Notes: generated by a model from the sequence alone, not told the origin. Shown: positions 13,221 through 40,217, counted from the first letter of the stretch. The stretch is 41,953 nt of DNA from Deltaproteobacteria bacterium (GCA_033763315.1 JANRKS010000015.1:1-41953); one strand, 5' to 3'. Translations and numbers: made by a program.

Positions 13221-13274
13221 ACACTACTCGTGCGAAGTATCGGATAGGTTTCACAGCAATGAAACGTTGGTAAA
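13221..13274 (-). promoter_or_regulatory. urtA promoter with 11-bp-phased direct repeats and a -10-like hexamer
   Basis: Minus strand TTTAC-n6-TTCAT-n6-GAAAC-n6-GATAC-n10-TAGTGT. Confidence 0.6.
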
Positions 13275-13308
13275 CAGGTCCACGGATCGAAACGCTCGCT
13301 TGTATGCG

Positions 13309-15129
13309 TCACGATGATGCGTGACCAATGAACGCGCGCCAGTTGCCAAACGGGGAAATATCGCGCGCGTTGATGGTGCTTGCGGCTTCGCAGATGAACC
13401 CTGTCACCAGGTGGCCGTCGGCAAGTTCAACTTTGCCGATGCCCAACGGCGCCGCGACGCCCGCGGTAAACGAACCCAAATGTTCAATGGGCATGGCCCA
13501 CAGCTCACCTTGCACGCTCACACCATTGTCGTTGACACGCACAAGGCCCGGCCTTGCCACGGTGCCACCGGGCAACGCGAGGAATTTGTAAACGGGTGCT
13601 GTGTGCATGGTGGCGAGGAACACAGCGCCGCGGCTTAACATTTGCTGCACGAGCGGTTGGCCCCGCATATGTGCGCCCATCACAAAGAGCGGTGACCAAC
13701 CACTTGTTGTGTTTACGAAGGGACTCGGTTCAGCAGCCCCAATTTGTGTGGGCCCACTGGCGCCGAGCCGCTGGTTGCAGGCCGCGTGCAAATGTGCCCC
13801 GATGCCGCTGAGCAAACTGTCGCGTTGGGCAGGGGCCAGCAAGGTCACGCCTGCCGGCAAGCCATCTTCGCGAAACCCTGTGGGCACTGCCAATCCGCAC
13901 ATGTTCAGCAAGTTTACGAAATTTGTGTAGCGCCCGAGCTCGGCGTTGAGGCCCACGGGATCCGCGTGTATTTGCTCGCGGGTGAAAATCGTGGGCGTGG
14001 TGGGCACCACCAGAACATCCACTCCGGTCCATATGGCCGCCGCTTGCGTGCGCAATGAAGCCAAGCGCCGCTGGCCCACGAACACGTCGGTGGCCTTGAT
14101 GGCGCTCGCTTTTGCGAGGATGCCACGCACCACAAGATCGAACGCTTGCGGTTGGGCGCGCAGCAAAGCGCCGCTGGCTTCTAGGCGCTCTGCCACCCAC
14201 GGGCCTGTGTAAAGTAACTCCGCCGCGCGTAACAAGGGATCGATGTCGATTTCAAGAAGGTCCGCGCCTTGAGCCACCAGGGCGTCGCACGCGGCGCGAA
14301 AGTTTGCTTCTGCCAAGCGATCGTTCAAGAACGACAGTTGCCTTGGCAGCGGTACACCCACGCGGATGTGGCCCGGCACAAACGCGGCCGTGGCCCGCCA
14401 CGAGTCGGCGCTGGGAAGGCTTTCAGGACAAGCTGGATCAAATCCCTTGGCCACATCAGCAACCGCGGTCGCATCCGCAACGGTTAACGCAAACACAGAC
14501 ACACAATCCAGCGACGCGCACGCGGGGACCACGCCTTTGGTGCTGAGCATCCCCTTGGTGGGCTTGAGCCCCACGATGTTGCCGAACCCCGCAGGCACGC
14601 GCCCTGAGCCTGCGGTGTCCGTGCCCAACGCAAACGAGGCGTATCCCCGCGTGACGGCCACGGCCGAGCCAGAGCTAGAGCCGCCAGCGATGTACTTATC
14701 GTTGAACACATTTGCGGGGGTGCCATAGGGCGAGCGTGTGCCAACCAAGCCTGTGGCGAACTGATCGAGATTCGTTTTGCCCAACACCAACGCGCCGGCA
14801 TCGAGCAGCTTCTGCACCACCGTGGCATTCTGGGTTGGCGTATACGCAAACTTCGGGCAAGCGGCGGTGGTGTTGAAGCCGAGGGCGTCGATGTTGTCTT
14901 TCACGACGAACGGAACCCCCCACAGCGGGCCGCGGGCTGCGCTCACCGCGTTGAGCCGACGGGCGGCCGCCATGACCATCGCGCGAGGCGCGAGCTCAAT
15001 GAAGACGCCGGGCACATCTTCAGCGGCGATGCGTTCATAGATGGCATCGATCACCGCTTCGGGCGTCAACGAGCCGGCGCTGTAATGCGCCTGCAGTGAT
15101 GCAATCGTTAAGGCCTCGATGGGCAGCAC
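13309..15129 (-). CDS. atzF: Allophanate hydrolase
   Basis: Amidase triad motifs FVVKDNID, GGSSSGS, GTDTAGSGRVPA; LGRYTNFVNLL; C-terminal domain GAHMRGQPL..RPGL..PLGIG. Start set to GTG 15129 (606 aa). Confidence 0.93.
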   Translation of the reverse strand: MLPIEALTIASLQAHYSAGSLTPEAVIDAIYERIAAEDVPGVFIELAPRAMVMAAARRLNAVSAARGPLWGVPFVVKDNIDALGFNTTAACPKFAYTPTQNATVVQKLLDAGALVLGKTNLDQFATGLVGTRSPYGTPANVFNDKYIAGGSSSGSAVAVTRGYASFALGTDTAGSGRVPAGFGNIVGLKPTKGMLSTKGVVPACASLDCVSVFALTVADATAVADVAKGFDPACPESLPSADSWRATAAFVPGHIRVGVPLPRQLSFLNDRLAEANFRAACDALVAQGADLLEIDIDPLLRAAELLYTGPWVAERLEASGALLRAQPQAFDLVVRGILAKASAIKATDVFVGQRRLASLRTQAAAIWTGVDVLVVPTTPTIFTREQIHADPVGLNAELGRYTNFVNLLNMCGLAVPTGFREDGLPAGVTLLAPAQRDSLLSGIGAHLHAACNQRLGASGPTQIGAAEPSPFVNTTSGWSPLFVMGAHMRGQPLVQQMLSRGAVFLATMHTAPVYKFLALPGGTVARPGLVRVNDNGVSVQGELWAMPIEHLGSFTAGVAAPLGIGKVELADGHLVTGFICEAASTINARDISPFGNWRAFIGHASS

Positions 15130-15190
15130 GAAACTTAGAATGCCTGCGATTTTGTCAACGTGGGCGCCGTTCTTGCGGGCCCATGGAGGT

Positions 15191-15245
15191 TTAACGGCAG
15201 AGGTACCACGTTGAAACTCAACCGAAACATGAGCCGGCTTATAAG
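15191..15245 (+). promoter_or_regulatory. biuH-urease operon promoter with four 11-bp-phased pentamers and a -10-like hexamer
   Basis: TTAAC-n6-GGTAC-n6-GAAAC-n6-GAAAC-n11-TATAAG. Confidence 0.65.
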
Positions 15246-15265
15246 CAACGGGTGACGAGGAATGC

Positions 15266-15958
15266 ATGAAACACGTATCAGCGAAACCCTATGCATGGCC
15301 TTGGAATGGTGATCTGCGGCCGCAGAACACCGCGCTTGTTGTCATCGACATGCAAACCGACTTTTGCGGCAAAGGTGGATACATCGATCAGCTGGGCTAC
15401 GACATCTCGTTGACCCGCAAACCGATCGAGCCGATCAAAGCGGTGCTCGCAAGCCTGCGCCGCCACGGCTTTCACATCATGCACACGCGTGAGGGGCATC
15501 GGCCTGATTTGGCGGATCTGCCTGCCAACAAGCGGTGGCGCTCGCGCCAAACCGAGCATGGCAGCTCAGGCATCGGCATTGGTGATCCCGGGCCTTGCGG
15601 CCGCGTGTTGGTGCGCGGCGAGCCGGGCTGGGAGATCATCCCAGAGCTTGCGCCGCTGCCGGGTGAAGTCGTGATCGATAAGCCAGGCAAAGGCTCTTTT
15701 TATGCCACTGACTTTGATATGACTCTGCGTCTGCGTGGCATTCAAAACATCATCCTCACAGGCATCACCACCGATGTGTGCGTGCACACCACTATGCGTG
15801 ACGCCAACGATCGCGGTTATGAATGCCTGTTGTTGGCTGATTGCTGTGCGGCCACCGATCAGGGCAACCACGAGGCCGCCTTGAAGATGGTGACGATGCA
15901 AAATGGCGTTTTTGGCGCCATCTCCACTTCAGGGGCGCTCATCGAGGCGCTCGGTTGA
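15266..15958 (+). CDS. biuH: Biuret hydrolase (isochorismatase-like cysteine hydrolase)
   Basis: [78 protein letters not shown] triad and BiuH-type specificity residues. Confidence 0.9.
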
Positions 15959-16335
15959 AGCCGCCTTCGTCGCGTCCGCCTGCGCTTTCGTTTCCAGGGC
16001 TGCTCACGGCGGCGCTTGAACCAGAAAAGCTGTTGTGGGAGCCGTTTCGTGAAGGCGTGCAGATCTGTCGGCTGCAAGGCGATCCGGCGCGCGCGCCTGC
16101 GGCAGCTTTGCTGCGTTATGCGCCGGGTGCGATGGTGCCGCAGCACACGCACGAGGGTTGGGAATACATTCTGGTGTTGTCAGGCGCGCAAGAAGACGAC
16201 GACGGCGTTCACGAGGCAGGCACCTTGAAGGTAAACCCACCCGGCAGCACGCACGCGGTTTATGCACCCCAAGGCTGCACGGTGCTGGCCGTGTGGGAGC
16301 GCTCGGTCAGGTTTCACAAGGCGGAGGGCGCGTAG
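15955..16335 (+). CDS. ChrR-like cupin (cupin_7-type) protein
   Basis: [45 protein letters not shown]; the TTG start overlaps the biuH TGA. Confidence 0.8.
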
Positions 16336-16337
16336 CC

Positions 16338-17198
16338 GTGCAGCCCTTCGCAGAGCCATTGAGCCACACACTGCCCGTGCGCGAATGGAAGGCGTGGCTG
16401 CGGTTGGGCTTTGCCAAAGAAGCCTGGGGCACGGCATTGGTGGATCGCGAACACTGTGGACCGCTACGCGTGCAAAAGCCGTTTTTTCCTGAGGGCGATG
16501 CGGTTTGTCACGTCTATGTGTTGCATCCGCCAGGCGGCCTTGTGCAAGGCGACAGCTTGTCAATCGCGGTCACCGTGGGGCAAGACGCGCACGCGCTGTT
16601 AACCACGCCCGCCGCCGGGAAAGTTTACCGCGGCGGCAACGTTCCCGCGGGGCAGACGGTGGTTGCAAACGTTGAGGCGCGCGGTGTGCTTGAGTGGCTG
16701 CCGCAAGAGACGATCGTGTATCGCGGCGCGCGCGCGCAATTGCGGACGCGCATCAACTTGGGTGACGACGCGAAAGTGTTGGCGTGGGAGATGGTGTGTT
16801 TAGGGCGGCCGGCGGCGGGCGAAACGTTTGACGAGGGTGAATGCGAGCTGCAGTTTGAAGTAAGCCGCAACGGCGTGCCCATTCATATCGAACGCAACCA
16901 CCTGCGTGGCGGCGAACCTGTGTTGCAGGCCGCTTGGGGCCTGCGGGGGTTCGCGGCGATGGGCACCATGGTGATCTTTCCGGCCACGCTTGCGTTGTTG
17001 GAAACGGCGCGGGTGTTATGTCACGGCGGCGAGGACGCCGCTTTATGCAGTGCCACCTTGGTTGAAGGCGCGCTGCTGTGTCGCATGCTTGCGCGCGACG
17101 GCGTGCAGGTGCGCGAACGCTTTACAAGAGTGTGGGAAGCGCTGCGGCCCTTGTGTCTTCACCGGCCCGGCAGTGCGCCGCGCATTTGGGCGACGTGA
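16338..17198 (+). CDS. ureD: Urease accessory protein UreD
   Basis: GPLRVQKPFFPEG, LHPPGGLVQGD, TTPAAGKVYR, LEWLPQETI, PRIWAT. Confidence 0.93.
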   Translation: MQPFAEPLSHTLPVREWKAWLRLGFAKEAWGTALVDREHCGPLRVQKPFFPEGDAVCHVYVLHPPGGLVQGDSLSIAVTVGQDAHALLTTPAAGKVYRGGNVPAGQTVVANVEARGVLEWLPQETIVYRGARAQLRTRINLGDDAKVLAWEMVCLGRPAAGETFDEGECELQFEVSRNGVPIHIERNHLRGGEPVLQAAWGLRGFAAMGTMVIFPATLALLETARVLCHGGEDAALCSATLVEGALLCRMLARDGVQVRERFTRVWEALRPLCLHRPGSAPRIWAT

Positions 17199-17227
17199 AA
17201 AAGAACGAAGCGTTGTGGAGATGACCT

Positions 17228-17875
17228 GTGGAATTGACCCCTCGTGAGAAAGACAAACTGCTGCTGTTTACCGCTGCCTTGCTTGCCGAGCGCCGCAAAG
17301 CCCGCGGCCTGAAGCTCAATTACCCTGAAGCTGTGGCCTTCATCTCGGCCGCCATATTAGAGGGCGCGCGCGATGGCAAATCGGTTGCGGAGCTCATGGC
17401 GTATGGCACGCAGCTGCTGCGTCCCGACGACGTGATGGAAGGCATCGCCGAATTGATCCCCGAAGTGCAGGTGGAGGCCACCTTTCCGGATGGCACGAAG
17501 CTGGTCACGGTTCACAACCCAATCGCCGCCACGAATAAAGTTGTGCCAGGCGTTATCGTGCTGGCGCCAGGCGAACCGCCGATTGAGATCAACGTGGGCC
17601 GCGAAACCACGCAGATCTTCGTGGCCAACTCAGGCGACCGGCCCGTGCAAGTGGGATCGCATTATCATTTCTTTGAGACGAACCCTGCCTTGCAGTTTGA
17701 TCGCCAGGCCGCCTATGGCATGCGCTTGAACATCGCCGCAGGCACGGCGGTGCGCTTCGAGCCGGGGCAAACGCGGCAGGTGGCGTTGGTGGCTTTTGCC
17801 GGGGCACGCGAAGTTTGGGGCTTTCGTGGTGAAGTTATGGGCGCCTTAGCGCCGCAAAAAGGGGGCACGCCATGA
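17228..17875 (+). CDS. ureAB: Fused urease gamma/beta subunit
   Basis: [28 protein letters not shown] (gamma) is continuous with [25 protein letters not shown] (beta). Confidence 0.95.
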
Positions 17876-19578
17876 GCGTGTATGTAAACCGGCGCGCCTA
17901 TGCAGATATGTACGGGCCCACCGTGGGCGATAGCGTGCGTTTGGGCGACACCGAGCTTTTCATTCGCATCGAGCGCGACCACACAATCGCTGGCGAAGAA
18001 GTGAAATTTGGCGGCGGCAAAGTGATCCGCGATGGCATGGGGCAAAGCCAACGTGCAGGCTCAGACGTGGCCGACATGGTCATCACGAATGCCATCGTGT
18101 TGGATCATTGGGGCGTGGTGAAGGGCGACATCGGCATCAAGCACGGACGCGTCATGCGCGTGGGCAAGGCCGGCAACCCGGATGTGCAACCCGGCGTGGA
18201 CATCGTGATTGGGCCAGGCACCGAGGTTGTGGCGGGCGAAGGTTGCATCATCACGGCGGGCGGCATCGATTCGCACATCCACTTCATTTGTCCGCAGCAG
18301 ATCGAGGAGGCGCTTGTTTCGGGCGTCACCACGATGATTGGCGGTGGCACCGGTCCCGCGGCCGGCACCAACGCCACCACGTGCACACCAGGCGCTTGGA
18401 ACATGGCGCGCATGCTTGAAGCCGCCGAAGCGTTTCCCATGAATCTAGGTTTTCTGGGCAAAGGCAACGCCAGCCGACCCGCCGGGTTATTGGAACAGAT
18501 CCGCGCCGGCTGCATGGGTCTAAAGCTGCACGAAGATTGGGGCACAACGCCCGCGTCGATCGATTGCTGCTTGTCGGTGGCCGAGCAAGAAGATGTGCAG
18601 GTCGCCATCCATACCGACACACTAAACGAATCTGGCTTCGTCGAAGACACTCTGGCGGCGTTTAAAGGCCGCACCATTCACACGTACCACACCGAAGGCG
18701 CCGGTGGTGGCCACGCGCCTGACATCATCAAGGCCTGTGGCGTGGCCCACGTGTTGCCCTCATCCACGAACCCAACACGTCCTTACACAATCAACACCGT
18801 TGATGAGCACCTGGACATGTTGATGGTGTGCCATCACTTGGATCCAGCCATCCCCGAAGATGTGGCGTTCGCCGAATCACGCATCCGCAAGGAAACGATC
18901 GCCGCCGAGGACATTCTGCACGACCTGGGCGCGTTCAGCATGATGTCGTCTGATTCACAGGCGATGGGACGCGTGGGCGAGGTGGTGACGCGCACGTGGC
19001 AAACGGCGCATAAGATGAGGGTGCAGCGCGGTCCTTTGGCGGGCGATCCGCCGGGTGCCGATAACTTTCGTGCCAAACGCTTCATCGCCAAATACACGAT
19101 CAACCCAGCGTTGGCGCACGGGATTGCGCATGAAGTGGGTTCGGTTGAGCCTGGGAAACTGGCCGATCTCGTGGTCTGGAAGCCGGCGTTCTTCGGCGTC
19201 AAACCATCGCTTGTGATCAAAGGTGGCTTCATTGCCGCGGCGCCGATGGGCGATCCGAACGCGTCGATTCCCACGCCACAGCCCGTGCATTACCGGCCGA
19301 TGTTTGGCGCTTATGGGCGCGCTTGTTCATCCACAAGCGTGACGTTCGTTTCGCGTCTGTCGCTGCAAACCGATCTCGCTTCTACCTTGGGGCTGCATCG
19401 CCGCTTGGTGCCTGTCAGTGGAACCCGCACAGTGAAAAAGACGGATCTTATCCACAATGGCGCTTTGCCGGTGATGGAGGTTGATTCGCAAACTTATGAA
19501 GTGCGCGCCGACGGTGTTCTATTGACATGTGAGCCGGCGAAATCTTTGCCGTTGAGCCAACGATATTTCTTGTTTTGA
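17872..19578 (+). CDS. ureC: Urease alpha subunit
   Basis: [54 protein letters not shown]. Confidence 0.98.
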
Positions 19579-20093
19579 CGCCACCCATGCAAACCAACGA
19601 CAACACATTGCCAAGCTTGCACGGCCCGGTGCAAAGCACAGAAGCGCCTTTGCTGCATTTAACGCTGCCGTTCGACGCCCGCAAACGCAGCCGACAGCGC
19701 GTCCGATTTGATGAAGGGGGAGAAGCGGCGCTGGTGTTGCCGCGCGGCACTGTGTTGCGCCACGGCGACTTGTTGGCCTTGGAAGGGCAGGGCCTTGTGC
19801 AAGTGAAAGCCGCGCCAGAAACGGTTTCCACCGTGTTCGCCGAATCAAGCCTGCACTTGGCGCGGGTGGCGTATCACCTGGGCAACCGCCATGTGCCCTT
19901 GCAGATCACGGACGCGTGGCTGCGATACCAACACGACCACGTGCTCGACGCGATGGTGATTGGTTTGGGCGCCTTGGTGCACACCGAGCAAGCGCCATTT
20001 GAACCAGAAGGTGGGGCCCACGGCGGCGGGCACCACGGTCATAGCCACGAGCATGACGAGCACCACCACCACGATCATGGACACCATCACTGA
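19575..20093 (+). CDS. ureE: Urease nickel chaperone UreE (alternative start ATG 19587)
   Basis: [22 protein letters not shown], His-rich C-terminal tail. Confidence 0.93.
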
Positions 20094-20754
20094 CGGCACA
20101 CGCCTGTTGCGGCTGCTGCAATTGGTGAGCCCGGCGCTTCCCATTGGCGCATTCGCTTACTCGCAGGGGCTGGAAACCGCCGTGGATTTGGGTTGGGTGC
20201 ACGACGCGCCCAGCACCCTGGCGTGGTTGACTGGCTTGTGCCAAAGCGCGTTTGGCACACTGGACATCGCGGTGTTTGCCAGGCTTTACAACGCCTTTTC
20301 GCAGGCAGACGGTGCGGCGGCGGTGCATTGGAACGCCTTCTTGCTGGCCAACCGAGGAGCGGCCGAACTGCGCGCTGAAGATAAACACTTAGGGGCCGCG
20401 CTTAACAAGGTTCTGGTGACGCTTGTGCCCGAGAACAGGCGCCTGCCGTTGGCAGGTCCGGCTTATGCTACGGCGTTCGCTTATGCCGCCGTGACGTTCG
20501 AGATTGATCGCGATGTGGCGGCCTTGGCGTTTGCCTTCGCCTGGGCCGAGGGCCAGGTGAGCGCAGCGGTCCGGTTGGTGCCGCTGGGCCAATCCGAAGG
20601 GCAACGCATTTTGATGAACCTCACGCAAACGCTGCAAGCTTGCGTGCAGCGAGGCCTGCAGCTTCTAGATCACGAGATTAGCAACACGGCGCCCGGCCAC
20701 GTGATGGCGGCGGCGCTTCACGAAACCCAATACGCGCGGCTTTTTCGGAGTTGA
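20077..20754 (+). CDS. ureF: Urease accessory protein UreF
   Basis: [42 protein letters not shown]. Start trimmed to ATG 20077. Confidence 0.93.
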
Positions 20755-21428
20755 GCATGCAAACCACAACCACGTACGCAGCAAAGAAGATCGGTGCTTC
20801 CACCAAAGACAAAACGGCATTGCGCGTGGGCGTGGCCGGTCCCGTGGGCTCAGGCAAAACGGCGTTGATGGATGCGCTTTGCAAGCGTCTTCGCCTTGCT
20901 TATGACATCGCGGCCGTCACCAATGACATCTACACGAAGGAGGACGCACAATTCTTGTTGCGCAGCGGGGCTTTGGCGCCCGAACGCATTGTCGGCGTTG
21001 AAACGGGCGGTTGCCCCCACACCGCGATTCGTGAGGATGCATCGGCAAATTTGGCCGCCATCGATGATCTTCTGGTGAAGTTTCCGACCTTGGAGATCGT
21101 GCTTGTTGAAAGCGGTGGCGACAACTTGGCGGCCACATTCAGTCCCGAGCTGGCGGACATCACGCTGTACGTGATCGATGTGGCCGCGGGAGATAAAATC
21201 CCGCGCAAGGGTGGGCCAGGCATCACGAAATCAGATTTGTTGATCATCAACAAGATCGATCTGGCGCCGGCCGTGGGGGCGTCATTGGAAGTGATGGATC
21301 GTGACGCGCGCAAAATGCGCGGAAACAAGCCGTTTCTATTTACGAATCTAAAAGTGGGCCAGGGCGTTGAAGAGATCGCCGCCTTCATCGTGCATGAAGG
21401 CATGTTACCCAATCGCCTGCACGCTTAG
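20751..21428 (+). CDS. ureG: Urease accessory GTPase UreG
   Basis: [35 protein letters not shown]. Confidence 0.96.
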
Positions 21429-22798: not shown

Positions 22799-22806
22799 GG
22801 GTGGCC

Positions 22807-28367: not shown

Positions 28368-28396
28368 TGCCGCCGCCGGTCAAAGAAATGTTTGCG

Positions 28397-29852: not shown

Positions 29853-29880
29853 ATGATCGAATCGGTGTGGCGACGCTACT
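29853..29880 (+). promoter_or_regulatory. Putative ECF promoter, distal, facing the sigma gene
   Basis: ATGATCG-N15-GCTACT. Confidence 0.65.
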
Positions 29881-29986
29881 TAGCCGGCCATAACAGCCAC
29901 GGTCGCTAGGCAACCGCTGGTGGTTTACATGTAGGCGAAAAGAGGTCTTGTGACGCGCTTGGGAATTTCGGTGAATCTGCCGAATA

Positions 29987-30014
29987 ATGATCGAAATGGC
30001 ACCGGCAGGATACT
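29987..30014 (+). promoter_or_regulatory. Putative ECF promoter, proximal, facing the sigma gene
   Basis: ATGATCG-N15-GATACT. Confidence 0.65.
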
Positions 30015-30060
30015 GGCCTTTAAACCAGTTCCTGCAGGGTCCAAAGTGTCATCTCCGTCC

Positions 30061-30681
30061 ATGTCACGCTCCAACGCCAGCCGCCCGCCCGCCGGCCTTC
30101 GTTCACTCGAAGACGCCGTTAAAGCCGCGCAAGCAGGCGACGCCGAGGCCGTGCGTGATGTGATCTTGGCTTGTGCCAGCAGCATCCTTGGCACCGTTAG
30201 GCGTATTGTGGGGGCACGCCACCCTGACGTTGAAGACATCGCTCAAGACGCCGCGATTCACTTGGTCAAAGCGCTGCCCAGTTACCGCGGCGAATGCTCG
30301 TTGCGGCATTTCGCATGCCGCGTGGCCACCAACCGCGCGCTGGCGGCCCGTCGACACGCGGGTTACCGGCAAGAGTGGACGCCCGCCGTGGATCCCACGC
30401 TGCTTGAGCAGCACGCCGACGTTGACGCCGACGAAGAAGATCCCATGGTCGCCGCGCAAAAGCGTGCCGCGGTTCGGGCGTTGTTGGATGAACTTCCTCC
30501 AGCCCAGTCCGAAGCGTTGGCGCTATATTTTGTGATGGGTTTGACCGCCGAAGAGATCGCGGCGACAACGGGCGTGGGCGTGCCTGCGGTGCGTGGGCGC
30601 TTGCGGCTTGCGCGGCAAGAACTCAAAGCGCGCATCGAAGGCAATGTGACCTTGTCAGATATGCTGAAGGGCAGCGCATGA
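30061..30681 (+). CDS. ECF-subfamily RNA polymerase sigma factor
   Basis: Region 2 DVEDIAQD..LPSYRGECSLRHFACRVA; region 4 LDELPPAQSEALAL..GLTAEEIA..VRGRLRLAR. Start uncertain (ATG 30061 or GTG 30046). Confidence 0.92.
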   Translation: MSRSNASRPPAGLRSLEDAVKAAQAGDAEAVRDVILACASSILGTVRRIVGARHPDVEDIAQDAAIHLVKALPSYRGECSLRHFACRVATNRALAARRHAGYRQEWTPAVDPTLLEQHADVDADEEDPMVAAQKRAAVRALLDELPPAQSEALALYFVMGLTAEEIAATTGVGVPAVRGRLRLARQELKARIEGNVTLSDMLKGSA

Positions 30682-32764: not shown

Positions 32765-32836
32765 AAAACGCGCGCTTGGCTTGCTCCCGCACTTAATTGA
32801 GCTGACCTGCGCGCGGGCCGCGTCTATCTCCCCCTT

Positions 32837-34162
32837 ATGAAGCGCCATCCCTTGAGTGCCATTGTGTTGTGTGCCCTTGTTGTGGCTTGCCGAGGCAGCT
32901 CGGGCGAAGGTGAAGCCGCGGGCGGTGACGGTGGCTTGGTGGCGGACGATGGGCAGGGTGGCGCGGCAGGGATGGCGGGTCGCAACGCTGGTGGGGCCGT
33001 CGCAGGCGAGGGGGGCGGCTCGGGCGGTGCAGGCGTGGGGGGCGGCGGTGCAGGCGGAACGTTGGGCGCCGGTGGCAAAGGAGGCGCTGCAGGCGGCTCG
33101 CAGAGTGCGGGTGGAAATAGGGGCACCGCTGGCTCTGGCGGCTCCGCCACATTGGGTGGCACGGGTGGCGGAGCGAAACGCGATCCGTGGTTGTGGCCGT
33201 TTTCTGCAAACAGCATTTGGAACCAGCCGATCGGTGACGGTGCGGTGATGGTGCCCGCAAACTTGCAATCCGCCGCGCACGTCGGCGTCGACATTCAAAT
33301 CATGTTGAAGCTCAAGGCGTCTGATCCGGCCCGCGCGGTGCTCGGCAGCACCACATTCGGCCCCGGAAGGTGTGGCGGCACCGAAGATCTCGGATTCAAA
33401 CTAAATGTTCCCGACAACTGGATCGTGCCAGACGCTGGCAACAGCCCTTACGGTGGCACACCCAACAGCAACTTTGCCTTCCTGCAGCCCGATGGCGTCA
33501 CATTGTTCGAGGGCAACGTGGTGGCGCGCTGTGTGGCCGCGGGCCCTGTCTATGTGCCCGACTTTTTCCGTTTCCCCAACAACCGCAAAATGCAATCCAT
33601 CACGGGTGACGGGCTCAACGGTGGCGGCCAAGGCGCAAGCCACATGTCGGCCATGGGCGGAACCTTGCGCAAGGGTGAACTGACCGGAGCCGATCCGATT
33701 CGTCACGCGGTGAAGGTAAACCCATTTGCGCAGAAGTATCTTTTCTACTCCGCACAAGTCCCGGGTTTTCGATGGCCCGCGAAAGCGGCCGATAGCTACG
33801 CCAACGGCGGCTACAAAGGCACGAACGCCGCCCTCGTCATGGGCGCGCTGTTGGCGATTCCAAAGAACGTCACGCCCGAATCAATCGGCATAGCATCGGA
33901 ACCGGCCAAAAAGCTATTTTTCGCCCTCAAACACTACGGCGCCTATTTCACCGAAGACGCCGCGTGGGACGTTTGGGATCTGGTCGTTGAACGCGACGCT
34001 GAACTCGAGTTCGAGAAAAAATGGGGCTTCTCCATGTTCAGCGACATTTGGAAGGCGGACGTGAACCGCCTGGCCAAGGCGTTGTGGATCGTCGACAACA
34101 ACACGGCCACATCGATTGGTGGCGGCGGTACGCCGCTTCAACCGCTGGCGCCGGGGTTCTAG
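32837..34162 (+). CDS. Hypothetical lipoprotein with Gly-rich linker
   Basis: Lipobox VVAC, long Gly-rich tract, then a globular domain starting RDPWLWPFSANSIWNQPIG. Confidence 0.75.
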   Translation: MKRHPLSAIVLCALVVACRGSSGEGEAAGGDGGLVADDGQGGAAGMAGRNAGGAVAGEGGGSGGAGVGGGGAGGTLGAGGKGGAAGGSQSAGGNRGTAGSGGSATLGGTGGGAKRDPWLWPFSANSIWNQPIGDGAVMVPANLQSAAHVGVDIQIMLKLKASDPARAVLGSTTFGPGRCGGTEDLGFKLNVPDNWIVPDAGNSPYGGTPNSNFAFLQPDGVTLFEGNVVARCVAAGPVYVPDFFRFPNNRKMQSITGDGLNGGGQGASHMSAMGGTLRKGELTGADPIRHAVKVNPFAQKYLFYSAQVPGFRWPAKAADSYANGGYKGTNAALVMGALLAIPKNVTPESIGIASEPAKKLFFALKHYGAYFTEDAAWDVWDLVVERDAELEFEKKWGFSMFSDIWKADVNRLAKALWIVDNNTATSIGGGGTPLQPLAPGF

Positions 34163-34170
34163 GCGCCCTT

Positions 34171-34938
34171 TCACTTCAACGCTGGCCGCAATACGTCCCA
34201 CAAAAGCAGCTTCAGCGCCAGCGCGGCCACAGACACCAAGAACAACACGCGTACGAACTTATCGCCTTTCTTGAGCGCCGCGTGTGCGCCCAGCCATCCA
34301 CCGCCGAAGTTGGCGATGGCCAGGGGAACCCCGATGCGCAAGTCGATGAGGCCGCCCGCAAAGAACACCGCGCAGGCCGCCACGCAGGACACAAGGTTCA
34401 CGGGTTTTGTGATCGCCACTGATTCCATCATCGAAAGGCCAAGCGCCGCCGTGCAAAGCACCGTCATCAGCGTTGTGTAGCCGCCAGAAAAGAAGCCACC
34501 ATAGATCCCCAGCAACGTGGCGCCCGCAAAGCCCACAAGTTTGCGTTTGTTCGTCAGCGTCTCGGGCGGCGCGGTGGCGCCTTTGCGCACGATCATAAAC
34601 AACACCAGCGCGCCCATGCACAATCCCACCACAGCTTTGACCAGTGGCTCCGCCAATTTTACGGCGATAAGGGCGCCGAACGCAGACGTGAGCGCCGTGA
34701 TCACGCCCAGCGGCCACAGCAGCTGGCTTTTGATCAGTCCCGCCCGTGCGAACCGTGCGGTGGCTGAAACAGTCATGAACAACACCGCGAACATGTTTGT
34801 GGCCACCGCGTGGCGCGCGCTCATGCCCATTGTGATCATGATTGGTACATTGATGAGCGAATTGCCGCCCGTGATGGCACCAATGGCCCCCGTGATCAGC
34901 ATCAACACCGTTAGAACCGCCAAGGCGCTTGCGCTCAT
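34171..34938 (-). CDS. TauE/SafE (TSUP) family membrane transporter
   Basis: GAITGGNSLINVP, AVATN, GIYGGFFSGG, GGWLGAH; highly hydrophobic. Start trimmed to ATG 34938. Confidence 0.85.
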   Translation of the reverse strand: MSASALAVLTVLMLITGAIGAITGGNSLINVPIMITMGMSARHAVATNMFAVLFMTVSATARFARAGLIKSQLLWPLGVITALTSAFGALIAVKLAEPLVKAVVGLCMGALVLFMIVRKGATAPPETLTNKRKLVGFAGATLLGIYGGFFSGGYTTLMTVLCTAALGLSMMESVAITKPVNLVSCVAACAVFFAGGLIDLRIGVPLAIANFGGGWLGAHAALKKGDKFVRVLFLVSVAALALKLLLWDVLRPALK

Positions 34939-34996
34939 GTCGTGGTTCTTATCGCTTGGATCACCGGAGGCAAGCCCCCCCGTCAAAGGCGGGTTG

Positions 34997-36211
34997 TCAA
35001 TTGGCCGGCAAGGCTGAGAAGCGCTGCACAAGCTGCAAAAGCTCGCGATCTGATCCCCTCGGGCCCACCACTGACACACCAAACGGGCAGCCTTCAAGGG
35101 TGCCAACGGGCAGTGAAATCTGCGGCAAGCCAGCCAAGCTAGCAATGGCACACAGCATCGAACACTTTTCCGTGAACGCCTCTAGGTGATCGTCCGATTC
35201 GCGGCGTGGCGGCGCCGCGCCTGCGGCCGTTGGAATCACCAGCACGGATCCTGTGGATAGCAGCGCGTGCATCGCAGCGTTGATGGACTCAGCGTGCGCG
35301 CGTATGGCGTCGGTCACTGGCGGCGCCGTCATCGCTTGCGTCACAAGTTTTCCCGCCATCGCACCCAGATGTGGCCGCTGTAGTTCAATCCATTCGCCGT
35401 GGCATTGCCTCAGCTCTTCGTTTTGCAGCGCCACATAGGTGCTTCGCCACGAAGCAAGCGAGCCTGTCTCAGGGCTGGTCACCAGACCCGTGGTCAATGG
35501 CAAACCCGTGGTCACTTGCACGTGGTCTGCCCCTTGCGCAAACACACGCCATACGTGATTCGAGAGCAAGTCGTGCGTGTCCAAAGGCACAAGCAGCTGC
35601 GTGAAAGGAACGCTGAGCCCGCTTGCCGGCAGCAATGCGTTGCCCACCTCGCGCAAAAGGCGTGGCGTTCGGCACAGCCATCCCACTGTATCGAACCGGG
35701 GTGCCAAAGGCCAAACGTCCTTCATCGACACAGCGCCATGGCTCGGCCGCATGCCAAACAAACCACAATGGCCCGCAGGAACCCGGACGGAACCACCGGC
35801 GTCGGTGCCAAGCGCGAAGTCCACCTGGCCTGCGGCAACCGCCACAGCGGAGCCTGCAGCCGATCCACCTGGAACACGATCAAAGCGCGCTGGATTCGGT
35901 GGGCAACCGTAGTGGGCGTTCTTGCCGCTCAAAGTGAGGGCCAGTTCATCTGTCTGCGTGAGCCCCGTCAGAGTGGCGCCTGCCGCCAGCAGCCGTGCAA
36001 TGACGACCGCCGTCCGCTCGGCCGGCTCGTGGCTGGCCAGCCACGCGGGGTTCCCAAAACAGCACCGTACGCCCTCCACAGAAAACGCGTCTTGAACGGC
36101 GAAGTTGAGCCCGCGCAACGGGCCGTCGGGCGCGCCTGGCAGACGTACCACATCATGCCGGCAGAACGCCGCATGCGAAATGTGGATCTCAGCTTTACGG
36201 GCTAGCTTCAA
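34997..36211 (-). CDS. Amidase-signature family protein with the catalytic Lys position as Gln
   Basis: GPLRGLNFAVQD, TDELA, GKNAHYG, PGGSAAGSAVAVA, GTDAGGSVRVPA, LAGLPQISLP. Start set to TTG 36211, downstream of a hairpin. Confidence 0.8.
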   Translation of the reverse strand: MKLARKAEIHISHAAFCRHDVVRLPGAPDGPLRGLNFAVQDAFSVEGVRCCFGNPAWLASHEPAERTAVVIARLLAAGATLTGLTQTDELALTLSGKNAHYGCPPNPARFDRVPGGSAAGSAVAVAAGQVDFALGTDAGGSVRVPAGHCGLFGMRPSHGAVSMKDVWPLAPRFDTVGWLCRTPRLLREVGNALLPASGLSVPFTQLLVPLDTHDLLSNHVWRVFAQGADHVQVTTGLPLTTGLVTSPETGSLASWRSTYVALQNEELRQCHGEWIELQRPHLGAMAGKLVTQAMTAPPVTDAIRAHAESINAAMHALLSTGSVLVIPTAAGAAPPRRESDDHLEAFTEKCSMLCAIASLAGLPQISLPVGTLEGCPFGVSVVGPRGSDRELLQLVQRFSALPAN

Positions 36212-36237
36212 GGTGATGACCTTTGCAAAAGACGAAC

Positions 36238-36267
36238 GCTTGCGCCCACCCTGTGGCGGGCGCAAGC
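36238..36267 (-). terminator. Stem-loop after the porin gene (terminator or mRNA-stabilising hairpin)
   Basis: GCTTGCGCCC / GGGCGCAAGC arms, followed on the minus strand by GTTCGTCTTTT. Confidence 0.55.
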
Positions 36268-36283
36268 CACGCATCTCAGCGAG

Positions 36284-37558
36284 TCACATCATGATCTGAA
36301 AGCCGACCTGCATGATGTCCTCGGTGGGGCTTGACATGCCCATAGGACCGCCGCCCTTTCTGTGGCGGTAATTCAAGTACCAGCGATCGGCGAAGCCATC
36401 AATGATGTAACCCAAGCCCACGTCAACCACATGCAAGTTGGTCGACCCATCGTAGTCTCCCAGTTGGTAACGAACGTTGGGCTGCAATTGTCCAATACCC
36501 ACCTTGTTGGCAGAGAGCCAGCTCGCTGAAGCCATGAAGCTCTTGCCGGGGAAGGGGCCCGCGATGCCAAGGCCTTGATCAACGGTCCCTTGGTTGACGA
36601 CGTAGCCTGCATCCACATTCGAGAAATCCCAATATCCGCCTTCAAGCGTGATTGTTCCCGGCGTGCCCAGGTTCTTTTCATAGAACACGTCGAATGAGTA
36701 CCCGAGAAAATCGTTCTCGAGCGGCATGGCCGTCTCAACACCCTTTTGGTAGTTGATTGTGGCGCCGATCGCCAGCACATCCTTCTGTCCGAAGTACGTC
36801 CCCGAGTTGTAGTAAAACGCCTCTGGCTCCAGCAGATGAAGAACCAAACGGCCACCGTAGCGCGCGTTCTTCAGGGTCTGTCCCGGTTGCAAGTCAAGCA
36901 TTGAAGCGTGGTATTTAAGCCGGCCGCCCTTGATCAAACCCCAAATGGTGAAACCGCGATCGCGGGCGCCTGTATCGAACGGATAGCTTGGAACGCCGAT
37001 CGCGAAGTTCCATCCGTTGCCAAAGAATGGTCCGTTCATGTTGTTGCGATCGTTGGCACCGATGTGTTGGCCCACCCAGATCTGAAATTCCTCGCGAAAT
37101 TTCAGCTGCATGATCGCGTCGAGTATGGCGAATTGCCCTAAGCCTTTGGCCGTTCCCAATTCAAACGATCCGAAAAATCCGAGCGTGGGATTGAGCTGTC
37201 CTGTCATGAAGGGACGTATGTTGGCCTGATCCACCAAGCCGTCGTTGAGGCTTATCAGGGTTTTGTCTTGAGGGTTGTTGAACGACAATGCAAGGCCTGT
37301 ACGCATACCCAGGCCAACGGTTAAGGTGGGCTTCGCGGGCGGCGCTTCTTTCTTGACGGCAATCTCCGCTACCTTTGGCTCCGGATCTGCCGCTTGCGCC
37401 TGCGTGCCTGTCATGCTTGTGGCGATCAGCAATGCCACGGCCGAAAGCTTCGCGAGCCGTGCAGGTGCCGGAACTTGTTTGCGGCCACATTGTGCCTTCG
37501 CTATCTGCCCGCCATAAACGCCGCAGTTCACCGGTCTACCTTCGTTGCAATTCTCCAT
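36284..37558 (-). CDS. Outer-membrane porin-like protein (possibly short-chain amide/urea porin, FmdC-like)
   Basis: Strong SD GAGGAGG; long signal ending AQA-A; ILDAIMQLKF..IWVG..DRNNMNGPFF; amphipathic strands ending QVGFQIMM; nitrogen-operon context. Confidence 0.7.
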   Translation of the reverse strand: MENCNEGRPVNCGVYGGQIAKAQCGRKQVPAPARLAKLSAVALLIATSMTGTQAQAADPEPKVAEIAVKKEAPPAKPTLTVGLGMRTGLALSFNNPQDKTLISLNDGLVDQANIRPFMTGQLNPTLGFFGSFELGTAKGLGQFAILDAIMQLKFREEFQIWVGQHIGANDRNNMNGPFFGNGWNFAIGVPSYPFDTGARDRGFTIWGLIKGGRLKYHASMLDLQPGQTLKNARYGGRLVLHLLEPEAFYYNSGTYFGQKDVLAIGATINYQKGVETAMPLENDFLGYSFDVFYEKNLGTPGTITLEGGYWDFSNVDAGYVVNQGTVDQGLGIAGPFPGKSFMASASWLSANKVGIGQLQPNVRYQLGDYDGSTNLHVVDVGLGYIIDGFADRWYLNYRHRKGGGPMGMSSPTEDIMQVGFQIMM

Positions 37559-37673
37559 GTCTTCGACCTCCTCGGAAGGGACGCAATGCCCTCAATACGC
37601 ACATGCCACGGGATGTGTGGCTCATGAATCGCGGTCACATGCCGCCACTCATTGCTTTCCTCTATGCGTACGC

Positions 37674-37733
37674 ACCGTACTTCGGCGAATGTTTCGTTCG
37701 CGTCTCGCCATTGAAAAATGCACGAATAGTTTC
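37674..37733 (-). promoter_or_regulatory. Porin promoter with phased repeats and a -10-like hexamer
   Basis: Minus strand TTTTC-n6-GAGAC-n6-GAAAC-n11-TACGGT, with an extra GAAAC upstream; AT-rich. Confidence 0.6.
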
Positions 37734-37768
37734 GTTTTACTCACGTTCTATTTCGGTGAAAGCAAAAC

Positions 37769-37808
37769 GCGAAAGGCGGCGCCGTTTTTCTACGGCACCG
37801 CCTTTCGC
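37769..37808 (-). terminator. Rho-independent terminator after the permease gene
   Basis: Hairpin GCGAAAGGCGG-CGCCGT..ACGGCA-CCGCCTTTCGC, followed on the minus strand by GTTTTGCTTT. Confidence 0.8.
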
Positions 37809-37832
37809 ACGAACAAGCCAAGCGAACCTTGA

Positions 37833-39425
37833 TTAAGCCACAGGCACCAGTTCTTCCGCCTTTGGCTCATGCGCTTCATGAACGACAGGCGACACAGATG
37901 AAACGGTGGCAAAGCGCGCGCAGCCGTAAAGCACGGCGGCCACGCCCAGATAACTTGCTGCCACAACCGGTGTTTGGCCGAAGCCAATCGATTCGCCGTG
38001 CATAAAGCCAAAGAACGTCAACGCGCCACCGGTGGCTGCAAATGCCGAAGCCTTTAAGAATTGACGATCTACAACGAAGGCCCCAATCGCACCTAAGATC
38101 AAGCCGCCTAAGATGGCGCCACCACCTAACACCGACAGACCTTCATAAAGCACGCCCATCTGGCCCAGCTTATCGAACCCCACCGTGGCCGCGTTCGTGC
38201 CTGCGGCCGCCAGTGAGTTATCAATCTGCAACTTGCCCCACGCGGCCAAGTGCGGCGTCAACGCCAAGATGATCGCAGGCGCATGGCTCTTGGGCGTTTC
38301 TTGGAAGGATTGCGCGCCAATCAACATGCCGATGTAAAGCAAGATGGGTGAAATCGCGACGACGGGAATCACGGCCACCATGAGCGAGATGATGCCGAAC
38401 CAAGACAGCAAGATCACCATCACCCCTGTTGCCGCCGAATAGCCGATGCGGCCACCCATCGCCTTCCATCCCGGATGCCCGATGTAAACCGCATTAATGA
38501 AAGGGTTGCCCATCAAACAGCCAATCAAGCTCACAACGCCATCCGCGGTAAGTACGCGCGTGGTTGGATAAGCGTCGCCGGCCACGGCCGCGCTTTCAAC
38601 GTTGTCGAGCGCTTCCACCAAGTCGTAGATACCGAAGGGAATCGCCGTCACGAGGATCACGCCCAAGAACTCGAATCCCGAGAACACGTGACCAAACGCT
38701 GGCAAAGGCAACGAGAAACCAAAATTGGCGAACGAACCTTTCAAGTTATCAACGCTCATGCCGCCATAGTTGAGGCCCAACGCGGTTGAACCCCAAGCGA
38801 TCGCTGTGCCAACCGCGATCGCAACCAGACCTGCAGGAATGCCTTTGAAGTAGCGAACGCCGCCAAACCAGCTCGCCAAAATGATGGCGAAGCAAACGAT
38901 GCCAATGGCAGGTGTCATGAACATTTCAAGCGCGGGACGCATCGAGATGAACGCGATGGAAACACCGGCCAGCGTGCCCAACAAGGCGGCGCGCGGTGTG
39001 ATCTTGCGGATGATGGGGGCCACGAAGCCGCCTGCCATCAACACGAAGCTTTGGATGAACACCCACGTGAGCCCTGCCTCCCAGCCCTTCACGGGGTCGC
39101 CGGTTTTGGCGGCGATCGGCATCATGATGACGAACACGACCACGAACATGTGCGGAACGCTGATGCCCGAAGGCAGCGCGCACACGTCAGTTCGCCCGGT
39201 TTCCTTGGCCTTTTTGTAAGCCAATCGCGCGTAGTACATCGTGCTCAAGAACATCATTAAGCCTGTGGCGGGCAGGATCCTGCCAAACACCAGCGCATCC
39301 GGCATTTTGAGCACGAAACGCAACAGCCCGGTTAGAACCAGAAGGTTCACCAGGATGTTTGTCCCGAAGCCGAAAAAGGCGTTCCAATCGCCGGGGGTCC
39401 ATAACAACGGTTTCTTTTCACTCAT
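37833..39425 (-). CDS. NCS2/AzgA-like permease, candidate triuret/biuret importer
   Basis: Polytopic; WTPGDWNAFFGFG, ALPSGISVPH, DNVESAAVAGD, AVYIGHPGWKAMGGRIGYS. Start trimmed to ATG 39425 (GGAGAG upstream). Confidence 0.8.
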   Translation of the reverse strand: MSEKKPLLWTPGDWNAFFGFGTNILVNLLVLTGLLRFVLKMPDALVFGRILPATGLMMFLSTMYYARLAYKKAKETGRTDVCALPSGISVPHMFVVVFVIMMPIAAKTGDPVKGWEAGLTWVFIQSFVLMAGGFVAPIIRKITPRAALLGTLAGVSIAFISMRPALEMFMTPAIGIVCFAIILASWFGGVRYFKGIPAGLVAIAVGTAIAWGSTALGLNYGGMSVDNLKGSFANFGFSLPLPAFGHVFSGFEFLGVILVTAIPFGIYDLVEALDNVESAAVAGDAYPTTRVLTADGVVSLIGCLMGNPFINAVYIGHPGWKAMGGRIGYSAATGVMVILLSWFGIISLMVAVIPVVAISPILLYIGMLIGAQSFQETPKSHAPAIILALTPHLAAWGKLQIDNSLAAAGTNAATVGFDKLGQMGVLYEGLSVLGGGAILGGLILGAIGAFVVDRQFLKASAFAATGGALTFFGFMHGESIGFGQTPVVAASYLGVAAVLYGCARFATVSSVSPVVHEAHEPKAEELVPVA

Positions 39426-39475
39426 GGGTTTGTTCTCTCCTTGCCAAAACGCGCCGCCGCCAATGGGAAAAACAA

Positions 39476-40150
39476 TCACGCCATGCCCAGGGCGGCCAGG
39501 ATGCGTGACGAATCGGACACCCAACCAAAGATTCCACCTTGGGCCTTGATCATTCGTAGGCCCATCTCGTGAAACTCCGGGAAATACGAGGCACAACAAT
39601 CAGAAGGGACGATGCAGCGAAAGCCTCGATCGTTGGCCTCGCGCACCGTCGTGTGAACGCACACTTCCGTGGTCACACCACACACGATAAGAAATTCGAT
39701 CTGCTTGTTGTTCAGAATCGGATGCAGCTCGGTGGCGTAGAACGCGCCTTTGCCCGGCTTATCGATCACCGGCTCGCCGGCGATGGGATAAAGTTCCGGG
39801 ATCAGATCTTGGCCTGGTTCGCCACGAATCAAGATTCGCCCCATGGGCCCCAGGGCGCCGATGCGGGTGCTGGGCGATCCGCGCTCAACCTTGGCTTTGG
39901 GCGCGTCGCTCAGATCGGGCCTATGGCCCTCGCGGGTGTGAATCACAAGTATGCCCAGCTCGCGGGCGGCTTTGAGCAACCGCAGGCACGGTCCAACGGC
40001 GGCCTTCAGCAGTGAAACATTGTTGCCAAGGCTTTCCCCGAACCCACCCGGTTCAAGAAAATCGCGCTGCATATCAATCATCACAACCGCGGTTTTCGCG
40101 GTATCGATGCCTATCGCCTCTGGTTCAGCCTGCACCGTCACAACGCCCAT
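39476..40150 (-). CDS. trtA: Triuret hydrolase (isochorismatase-like cysteine hydrolase)
   Basis: IDMQRDFLEPGGFGESLGN, IGALGPMGRILIRGEPG, DKPGKGAFYAT, GVTTEVCV, ASYFPEFH, AQGGIFGW: the F/L/N/E/Y/I residue set that separates TrtA from BiuH. SD GGAGG. Confidence 0.85.
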   Translation of the reverse strand: MGVVTVQAEPEAIGIDTAKTAVVMIDMQRDFLEPGGFGESLGNNVSLLKAAVGPCLRLLKAARELGILVIHTREGHRPDLSDAPKAKVERGSPSTRIGALGPMGRILIRGEPGQDLIPELYPIAGEPVIDKPGKGAFYATELHPILNNKQIEFLIVCGVTTEVCVHTTVREANDRGFRCIVPSDCCASYFPEFHEMGLRMIKAQGGIFGWVSDSSRILAALGMA

Positions 40151-40173
40151 GAGTGACCCTCCGTTCTGCCGCA

Positions 40174-40217
40174 ACCCTAGGTCGGGCGTTGTTTCGGAGT
40201 CATCTCGGACGAGTTAA
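40174..40217 (-). promoter_or_regulatory. trtA promoter with phased repeats and a -10-like hexamer
   Basis: Minus strand TTAAC-n6-GAGAT-n6-GAAAC-n11-TAGGGT. Confidence 0.6.
40200..40215. repeat. 16-bp direct repeat, copy 2
   Basis: Identical to 4969-4984. Confidence 0.6.

Follow-up and report, generated by a model that had tools for sequence, protein, structure and literature searches.

Which kind of promoter, and which regulator, controls nitrogen scavenging from urea-type compounds in a soil myxobacterium, a Gram-negative member of the class Polyangia (Myxococcota), is the question raised by the DNA analysed here, a contig of 41,953 bp from a Deltaproteobacteria bacterium (GCA_033763315.1, JANRKS010000015.1). 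The entire contig, C15 in our numbering, is referred to as the window, and it belongs to a genome (G000) of 7.63 Mb with 60.6% G+C in 40 contigs. A sequence-only reading of the window had proposed that four transcription units, headed by urtA (urea transporter), biuH (biuret amidohydrolase), a BiuH-like hydrolase gene that it named trtA and a porin gene, share a direct-repeat promoter of the type bound by GlnR, the nitrogen regulator of actinobacteria. Our computational analysis supports the proposal of a GlnR-type nitrogen regulon outside the actinobacteria, as site geometry, matrix enrichment, the presence of a GlnR-like regulator and the lack of a sigma-54 element all agree. In our judgement the four sites are probably sigma-70-type promoters that depend on an activator and belong to a single nitrogen-scavenging regulon, and they are most likely bound by a GlnR-type orphan regulator encoded elsewhere in the genome, here called P0001.

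The four promoters are built alike. Upstream of urtA, on the minus strand, the array (13237..13274) consists of TTTAC (13274-13270), TTCAT (13263-13259), GAAAC (13252-13248) and GATAC (13241-13237), and the promoter reads TTTAC-n6-TTCAT-n6-GAAAC-ctatcc-GATAC-n10-TAGTGT, with the -10-like hexamer TAGTGT at 13221..13226 (minus strand), 10 nt past the proximal pentamer. The biuH array (15191..15228, plus strand) has TTAAC at 15191, GGTAC at 15202 and GAAAC at both 15213 and 15224, in the promoter TTAAC-n6-GGTAC-n6-GAAAC-tcaacc-GAAAC-n11-TATAAG, whose hexamer TATAAG (15240..15245, plus strand) lies 11 nt past the proximal pentamer. The same distance of 11 nt is found at the remaining two, both on the minus strand: the BiuH-like gene has GCGAC (40228-40224), TTAAC (40217-40213), GAGAT (40206-40202) and GAAAC (40195-40191) in an array at 40191..40228, giving GCGAC-n6-TTAAC-n6-GAGAT-gactcc-GAAAC-n11-TAGGGT with TAGGGT at 40174..40179, and the porin gene has TATTC (37728-37724), TTTTC (37717-37713), GAGAC (37706-37702) and GAAAC (37695-37691) in an array at 37691..37728, giving TATTC-n6-TTTTC-n6-GAGAC-gcgaac-GAAAC-n11-TACGGT with TACGGT at 37674..37679. 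All four arrays are oriented with their gene, and the end of the proximal pentamer lies 37-132 nt from the start codon, an approximate range as the gene calls are those of a codon-usage open reading frame (ORF) scorer (5,718 genes, 90% coding). The DNA was read and each element re-extracted by coordinate; the sites, pentamers, spacers and -10-like hexamers, together with the additional in-phase pentamers upstream and the gene-wise orientation, are as the sequence-only reading had described them.

The pattern GANAY-N6-GAWAC has exactly four matches in the window, at 13237-13252 (minus), 15213-15228 (plus), 37691-37706 (minus) and 40191-40206 (minus), against an average of 0.72 in the shuffled window, with four reached in 1 of 100 shuffles; the pattern was devised after the sites had been seen, and this count alone is weak. 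A strict 12-position pattern that includes TAnnnT has four matches in the 7.63-Mb genome, both strands counted, upstream of urtA, the porin gene, the BiuH-like gene and glnB, in each case in sense orientation; three of the four matches lie on the window contig, and biuH falls outside the strict pattern solely because its hexamer TATAAG ends in G. Could the resemblance nevertheless be due to chance, to the generic composition of A/T-rich upstream elements, or to GAAAC acting as the -35 of an extracytoplasmic function (ECF) sigma factor? The degenerate pattern is post hoc, GAAAC does resemble ECF -35 motifs and the family scan places an ECF sigma gene in the window at 29950-30681. However, the -35/-10 spacing of the sigma-70 family, including ECF factors with their GAAC-type -35, is 16-17 nt, and GAAAC stands 10-11 or 21-22 nt from the hexamer, on which ground the ECF reading was rejected. 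The sites are also specific genome-wide and enriched at nitrogen genes, and their pentamers are conserved where the spacers have diverged. We give this explanation almost no credence, and the four sites are real and not chance.

As for the promoter class, the genome encodes rpoN and about 50 sigma-54 activators, none of which reaches the NtrC equivalog cut-off of 558.6 (the best scores 490.5 bits). No GG-N10-GC element with fewer than three mismatches is present in the four upstream regions: the best candidates have 3-6 mismatches at the 11 specified positions, and the urtA and porin regions contain no candidate at all. A sigma-54 promoter (TGGCAC-N5-TTGC) was rejected at the four sites for want of a -24/-12 element, in line with the sequence-only reading, and a canonical sigma-70 promoter was rejected as well, no such -35/-10 pair occurring in the four regions. 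If TAnnnT is taken as the -10, the geometry around -35 would fit, with the proximal site ending 10-11 nt upstream of the hexamer and no canonical -35.

We next consider where else in the genome such sites occur. A seed-only matrix, made from the four window sites alone and run over 4,422 upstream regions, is the sole independent scan. Six non-seed matches exceed 20 bits, the next best scores 15.8, and the reverse-strand control peaks at 16.2 once two of the same sites viewed from divergent neighbours are set aside. The six lie before genes for a transglutaminase-DUF2126 amidoligase (C24:21221, 29.2 bits), a product of unknown function (C19:217350, 28.8 bits), PII (glnB; C9:320493, 26.5 bits), NrtA, with nrtBCD (C8:32489, 23.2 bits), glycogen phosphorylase (glgP; C8:162982, 22.9 bits) and phosphofructokinase (pfk; C40:137034, 20.6 bits). 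A round-2 matrix, which was trained on ten sites (the four seeds and these six matches) and is partly circular, returns about 13 promoters at 17-50 bits, against maxima of 13.1, 10.8 and 14.9 in three shuffles. Its additions are a circularly permuted ATP-grasp/alpha-E gene with a transglutaminase (C26:107750, 29.0), an outer-membrane protein gene followed by a hybrid kinase (C32:569355, 24.7), C40:198026 (17.0), the type III glutamine synthetase gene (GS-III, 14.6), nirB-nirD-FeS-nasA (13.6), the regulator/gltB intergenic region (10.8) and the pyruvate kinase gene (pyk; C32:559530, locus L022, 10.1). The layout common to the matched promoters is TTTAC-n6-TTnnC-n6-GAAAC-n6-GAAAC-n10/11-TAnnnT. 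When only the pentamers are scored, a value of at least 18 is reached in 18 of 2,981 upstream regions of this genome, whose 99th percentile is 12.3.

The enrichment at nitrogen genes anticipated by the sequence-only reading is therefore seen at glnB and nrtABCD with the seeds alone, and at GS-III, nirBD-nasA and gltB/regulator after one iteration; among its expected targets, nitrate/nitrite assimilation stood, whereas type-I glnA and amtB did not behave as expected, as described below. These results also bear on the idea that the motif belongs to a local pathway regulator, one that serves the catabolism of urea, biuret and triuret and acts on this gene island alone. In its favour are the three of four genome-wide strict matches that fall in the 42-kb contig and the fact that all four units concern urea-type compounds. 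Yet the same architecture stands at glnB, nrtABCD, nirBD-nasA, GS-III and gltB on other contigs, it precedes glnB in 18 of 20 regulator-carrying genera of the class, and the window has no regulator gene of the GlnR kind; the local regulator was rejected on the sites at glnB, nrt, nir and GS-III, and we consider it highly unlikely.

Two further groups of promoters found by the scans deserve mention. The glgP, pfk and pyk genes (loci L015, L014 and L022) carry the same array-plus-hexamer promoter as the nitrogen genes, which suggests a coupling of carbon-reserve catabolism to the nitrogen regulon. Two top-scoring arrays head amidoligase-type clusters of unknown role, at C24:21221-24568 (L010) and C26:107750-110296 (L016).

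Comparison with related genomes indicates which parts of the promoters are under constraint, bearing in mind that relatives of the same family are kin and not independent samples. At urtA, an array scoring at least 18 is present in 12 of 25 family relatives, from many genera, against 18 of 2,981 background regions, and TAnnGT or CATAGT is found at the same distance from the array. The biuH array reaches this score in three of 27 relatives, the same-genus genomes G002 and G021 plus G007, with diverged spacers and a TATAAG that is identical in G002 and G021; in the remaining relatives the DNA upstream of biuH is coding, so biuH is internal to an operon there. The porin gene was found within the genus only, in three of 41 genomes including this one and in none of the remaining 38 of the family, and its promoter, GAGAC-n6-GAAAC-n11-TACGTT, is kept in both same-genus genomes. 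The promoter of the BiuH-like gene, TTAAC-n6-GAGAT-n6-GAAAC-n11-TA(C/G)CGT, is likewise kept in G002 and G021 despite a rearranged gene order in which the hydrolase and porin units are divergent. In the same-genus genomes, then, all four window promoters retain the hexamer and the pentamers in their 11-bp phase with rewritten spacers, and such kept pentamers with diverged spacers are the footprint expected of a binding site.

If the arrays are operators, what binds them? Family scans of the window detected no GlnR-like regulator gene, in agreement with the sequence-only reading, and the best candidate is encoded on contig C2 instead. P0001 is an OmpR-family protein of 227 aa (G000:C2:470672-471355), whose gene is divergent from gltB and neighbours genes for a pheA-type prephenate dehydratase and a DAHP synthase/chorismate mutase. 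No histidine kinase gene adjoins it among the annotated neighbours, making it an orphan. The protein contains a PF00486 winged-helix domain (91.6 bits, cut-off 26.2) and has no PF00072 receiver match at E<=0.01, whereas the other eight OmpR-family proteins of the genome all match PF00072 and none passes PF21695 (GlnR_1st); a search of the whole genome with PF21695 rises above the cut-off at a single place (29.1 bits, P0001), and at none in 14 control genomes. Read from the translation, the pseudo-receiver appears to keep the central Asp (VVVID) and to have lost the other phospho-pocket residues, namely the acidic pair, Thr/Ser and Lys: the N-terminus, VVTSKPSD, is without a DD pair, and DDFVLSP has Ser at the position expected for Lys. 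The roles of these residues were assigned from general response-regulator knowledge and from PMC12632262.

Among Protein Data Bank chains, P0001 scores best with 8hig (131.1 bits), 8hih (130.2 bits), 7e1b (109 bits) and the DNA-binding domain (DBD) chain 8hml (106.6 bits), above the OmpR/PhoB-type chains RegX3 (91.5 bits), MtrA (88.2 bits) and PhoB (about 64 bits). An assignment as PhoB was rejected, with 121 bits against an equivalog cut-off of 296 and about 64 bits for PhoB chains against 131 for GlnR. 8HIH is the Mycobacterium tuberculosis GlnR activation complex and 8HML the Saccharopolyspora erythraea GlnR DBD-DNA complex, in which R186, V190, R193 and R194 make base contacts (PMC10235972). 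In the alignment of the PDB match these residues correspond to R194, I198, R201 and R202 of P0001, three of four being identical and one changing from V to I. A GlnR-like OmpR regulator of the sort that the sequence-only reading placed outside the window is thus encoded in the genome, with the GlnR_1st domain and GlnR structures as its best PDB matches, and P0001 is the best candidate regulator of the arrays, its binding to the sites being predicted. To place it among its nearest relatives, we took the best 150 representatives among 1.84 billion proteins and aligned the 117 longest with P0001 (118 sequences), of which 68 carry GlnR_1st and 20 a normal receiver. The named relatives come from Myxococcales, Polyangiales and Polyangiaceae metagenome-assembled genomes (MAGs), two Armatimonadota MAGs (P0152 and P0185) and one Actinoplanes protein; on these matches, and with GlnR-like relatives in Armatimonadota MAGs, the GlnR_1st type reaches beyond Actinobacteria plus Polyangia.

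The regulator and the motif also travel together. In a survey of 300 genomes across the phylum, a P0001-like gene (E<=1e-40) was present in 45 of 59 genomes of the class Polyangia vs 0 of 241 of other classes. With one genome per genus and a 350-nt region ahead of the best glnB match, GAAAC-n6-GAAAY in sense orientation was found in 18 of 20 regulator-carrying Polyangia, 17 of them also with TA at n10-11, against 1 of 20 regulator-lacking members of other classes (none with TA) and one of five regulator-lacking Polyangia (with TA). The median matrix score at glnB is 14.2 with the regulator vs -2.4 without it in other classes, and spacers differ between genera; the nominal P of 1.2e-6 is overstated because relatives are kin. 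A class-level comparison at urtA, small and weak at four vs four, gives array scores of 14.0, 12.8, 1.7 and 13.3 with the regulator and -0.1, 1.3, -1.6 and -3.1 without it. For the regulator's own locus we collected 80 loci that encode proteins of 73-96% identity, each in a Polyangia-type MAG, 60 of them with a readable start; in 23 of the 60 a sense array scores no less than the 99th percentile of the background, its distance to the ATG being fixed at 92-110 nt, and none has an antisense array. Directly downstream of the regulator's sense array, in the regulator-gltB intergenic region, there is a perfect 21-nt palindrome, AATGTTTCGTTACGAAACATT (L021:7419-7439, contig C2). ATGTTTC stands 5 nt before the P0001 ATG, and TGTTTC occurs near the start in 26 of the 60 related loci.

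It is conceivable that the arrays are true nitrogen-regulon sites bound by another protein, either a canonical OmpR-family regulator or an unrecognised factor, with P0001 a mere member of the regulon. The genome has nine OmpR-family genes, that is eight OmpR/PhoB-type regulators besides P0001, direct repeats of 11 bp occur throughout the OmpR/PhoB family, and 37 of the 60 P0001-type loci, which form a more distant group, have no array within 260 nt upstream. We regard a different binder as unlikely all the same: P0001 is the sole GlnR-type protein of the genome, its recognition helix matches the GlnR base contacts and GlnR sites have the gTnAc/GaAAC words with 6-nt spacers, motif and regulator co-occur across genera (the 18 of 20 vs 1 of 20 above), and the P0001 gene adjoins gltB.

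The assignment of the arrays to P0001 must also be weighed against a number of observations that do not favour it, beginning with the further OmpR-family genes and the array-less P0001-type loci just given. The match of P0001 to PF21695 is marginal (27.5 bits vs a cut-off of 27). Textbook nitrogen genes make up only two of the six seed-only matches, the rest being the amidoligase cluster, glgP, pfk and the gene of unknown function. The circularity of the round-2 matrix, the kinship of the family relatives, the three of 27 relatives with a biuH array and the approximate start-codon distances count in the same direction. Several distal half-sites in the window arrays are degenerate (TATTC, GCGAC, TTCAT and TTTTC), and the arrays have two distal a-like or T-rich and two proximal b-like sites, rather than the a-b-a-b order of actinobacterial GlnR. 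The -10 assignment, and with it the frame of -61 to -23 used below, is something we infer from the hexamers. Finally, the upstream regions of the two type-I glnA genes contain no array, and ahead of two amtB paralogues stand three pentamers in 11-bp phase whose orientation is opposite to that of the gene, followed by a lone GTTTC 25-28 nt further on: GTTTC-n6-GTTTC-n6-GTTTC at G000:C9:354397-354448 (L138) and GTTTC-n6-ATTTC-n6-GTATC at G000:C21:107414-107454 (L136).

Upstream of type-I glnA one sigma-54-like stretch is present, with the wrong spacing by our reading. The inverted form at amtB recurs in the family, GTTTC-n6-(G/A)TTTC being found upstream of amtB in 16 of 29 relatives and the direct form in one of 29; in this genome, 3 of 1,611 upstream regions have the antisense form. 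Since the inverted amtB repeats imply that more than one mode exists, the arrays could be operators at which the bound protein represses rather than activates, and indeed they overlap the -35 and spacer region, and GlnR activates or represses by position (PMC10235972). On the other hand, the four sites have no recognisable -35 or canonical sigma-70 promoter, which is typical of activator-dependent promoters, and the arrays keep a constant 10-11 nt from the -10 and are all in sense at about 13 promoters, which agrees with the GlnR activation complex of known structure and its proximal site downstream of -35. Repression at the four sites is, in our opinion, very unlikely.

Taken together, these data favour activation by P0001, for which we propose the following mechanism. 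The four promoters would have no usable -35 and, in its place, up to four pentamers on one helix face at 11-bp spacing, TTnAC-like distally and GAAAC-like proximally, with 10-11 bp between the last of them and a TAnnnT -10; for a transcription start about 7 nt past the hexamer, the array would span approximately -61 to -23. P0001, with its OmpR/PhoB winged helix and pseudo-receiver, would bind the pentamers head-to-tail, up to four protomers at a time, and may recruit RNA polymerase in a class-II-like manner by analogy with the solved complex of actinobacterial GlnR. Nitrogen limitation would thereby switch on urtABCDE, biuH with urease, the BiuH-like hydrolase with its permease and the porin-amidase unit in the window, and glnB, nrtABCD, nirBD-nasA and GS-III elsewhere in the genome. 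Binding by P0001, activation, the transcription starts and the nitrogen signal are what we infer from the sites and the protein. For actinobacterial GlnR, Ser/Thr phosphorylation and acetylation have been reported (PMC12632262).

The proposed system is best compared with actinobacterial GlnR, whose sites consist of an a word, gTnAc, and a b word, GaAAC, of 5 nt each and six bases apart, and of which four protomers sit head-to-tail around the -35 with the b2 site downstream of it (PMC10235972); regulons of this kind are those of Streptomyces coelicolor, Mycobacterium, Amycolatopsis mediterranei and Saccharopolyspora erythraea. The geometry of the arrays agrees with this published cis-element, as the sequence-only reading had argued, in its direct 5-nt sites with 6-nt spacers (proximal GAAAC, GATAC, GAGAC or GAGAT, distal TTTAC, TTAAC or GGTAC); with TAnnnT as the -10, up to four head-to-tail sites would also surround a poor -35, the proximal one downstream of it. 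P0001 is likewise an orphan of the OmpR/PhoB type, its receiver being atypical, with three identical and one conservative of the four base-contacting residues, and the targets include urea, nitrate/nitrite, PII, glutamine synthetase and glutamate synthase genes together with some carbon genes. The differences lie in the Gram-negative host, in the length of P0001 (227 aa vs about 255 aa, with about 40-45% identity overall), in the half-site order, in type-I glnA without the motif and amtB with an inverted one, and in the retention of rpoN and about 50 sigma-54 activators. By the tests available, the system would belong to the GlnR kind save for the a-b-a-b alternation and the host phylum.

The pho-box of Escherichia coli has a comparable layout, in which 11-bp direct repeats take the place of the -35 and stop about 10 bp short of the -10, and the winged-helix regulator PhoB binds head-to-tail, as predicted here for P0001; the present promoters differ in their GAAAC/TTnAC word and in serving nitrogen, not phosphate, genes. 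The head-to-tail arrangement of GlnR has itself been compared with that of PhoB (PMC10235972). The NtrC/sigma-54 system of Proteobacteria has the same role, that of switching on nitrogen scavenging from urea and nitrate along with PII and glutamine synthetase, but differs in its -24/-12 promoters, absent from the four sites, and in an activator whose equivalog cut-off none of the sigma-54 activators of this genome reaches, whereas a sigma-70-type mechanism is proposed here.

The window genes were named by NCBIfam and Pfam family scans with curated cut-offs. The urea ABC (ATP-binding cassette) transporter operon urtABCDE occupies 7429..13160 (minus strand), each gene matching its NCBIfam equivalog, UrtA to UrtE, above the cut-off. 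On the plus strand, biuH-ureD-ureAB-ureC-ureE-ureF-ureG (15266..21428) are separated by short gaps; biuH itself (15266-15958) scores 402 bits with NCBIfam BiuH, above the cut-off, the urease subunits, UreE and UreG match NCBIfam models and UreD and UreF match Pfam, and from this spacing biuH through ureG would form a single operon. The remaining two units are on the minus strand. The names that the sequence-only reading gave to urtABCDE, biuH and urease hold above curated cut-offs, and 'trtA' and 'porin' are looser: the former (39476-40150) is a BiuH-like cysteine hydrolase with 269 bits on the BiuH model, below the cut-off of 370, the triuret specificity in its name being putative, and the latter (36284-37558) is a porin-like outer-membrane protein with 89.9 bits on the ExtI porin model, below the cut-off of 150. 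The hydrolase gene is followed by one for a 548-aa integral-membrane protein (37833-39479) with nine hydrophobic segments, which has no Pfam or NCBIfam match in the family scans; it is probably a permease, as its Atlas neighbours carry the names AGZA or xanthine-uracil permease, a lead only. A terminator-like hairpin of 19 pairs (12 G-C) with a T-run (37767..37810, minus strand) lies between the permease gene and the porin promoter. The porin unit as a whole (34171..37558) also contains an amidase gene (34997-36274; PRK08310, 404 bits, above the cut-off) and a TauE/SafE-family membrane protein gene (34171-35151; Pfam TauE).

Between the urtA and biuH promoters lies the gene for an allophanate hydrolase (13309..15129, minus strand; NCBIfam TIGR02713, 715 bits; start from the ORF scorer), which is without a sense-oriented array of its own. 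The intergenic region upstream of this gene also holds the biuH array, in the opposite orientation to the gene, and TTGACA-n15-TAAGTT at 15132-15158 (minus strand) ends just 2 nt before the predicted GTG start, so that the gene may be leaderless or mis-started. At the other end of the window, a row of cytochrome c and Qrc/ActB-like molybdopterin oxidoreductase genes (3-4796) is headed by a sigma-54-like element, TGGCCCACTGGTTGCA (4792-4807, minus strand), with one mismatch to TGGCAC-N5-TTGCW. Between these respiratory genes and urtE (region 5338-7362), a PIN-domain gene (6691-7065, minus strand) and a gene for a weakly SIR2-like protein of 390 aa (5338-6510) may form a small toxin-antitoxin or defence insert.

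GlnR-type control is framed as an actinobacterial system (PMC10235972), and none of the papers searched, judged by titles and the beginnings of abstracts, describes an OmpR-type GlnR in myxobacteria. A wider picture can be sketched, tentatively and with more doubt than confidence: in Polyangia a GlnR-type pseudo-receiver regulator, rather than NtrC/sigma-54, may govern the entire programme of nitrogen scavenging; this regulator would be shared with Actinobacteria and Armatimonadota, through common descent or an ancient transfer, glgP, pfk and pyk would be wired in as well, and the orientation of the array would act as a switch, with sense arrays at about -61 to -23 activating and the inverted amtB arrays serving a second mode. 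The analysis provides a complete and testable regulon prediction, consisting of a regulator, a site model and some 13-15 promoters, for a large class that lives in soils and sediments and is mostly uncultured. On this prediction the sigma-54-rich Myxococcota need not rely on NtrC for nitrogen control, the scavenging of fertiliser-derived nitrogen from biuret and urea would be linked to the general nitrogen response, and the Polyangia would offer a second natural lineage in which to study nitrogen sensing by a pseudo-receiver regulator.

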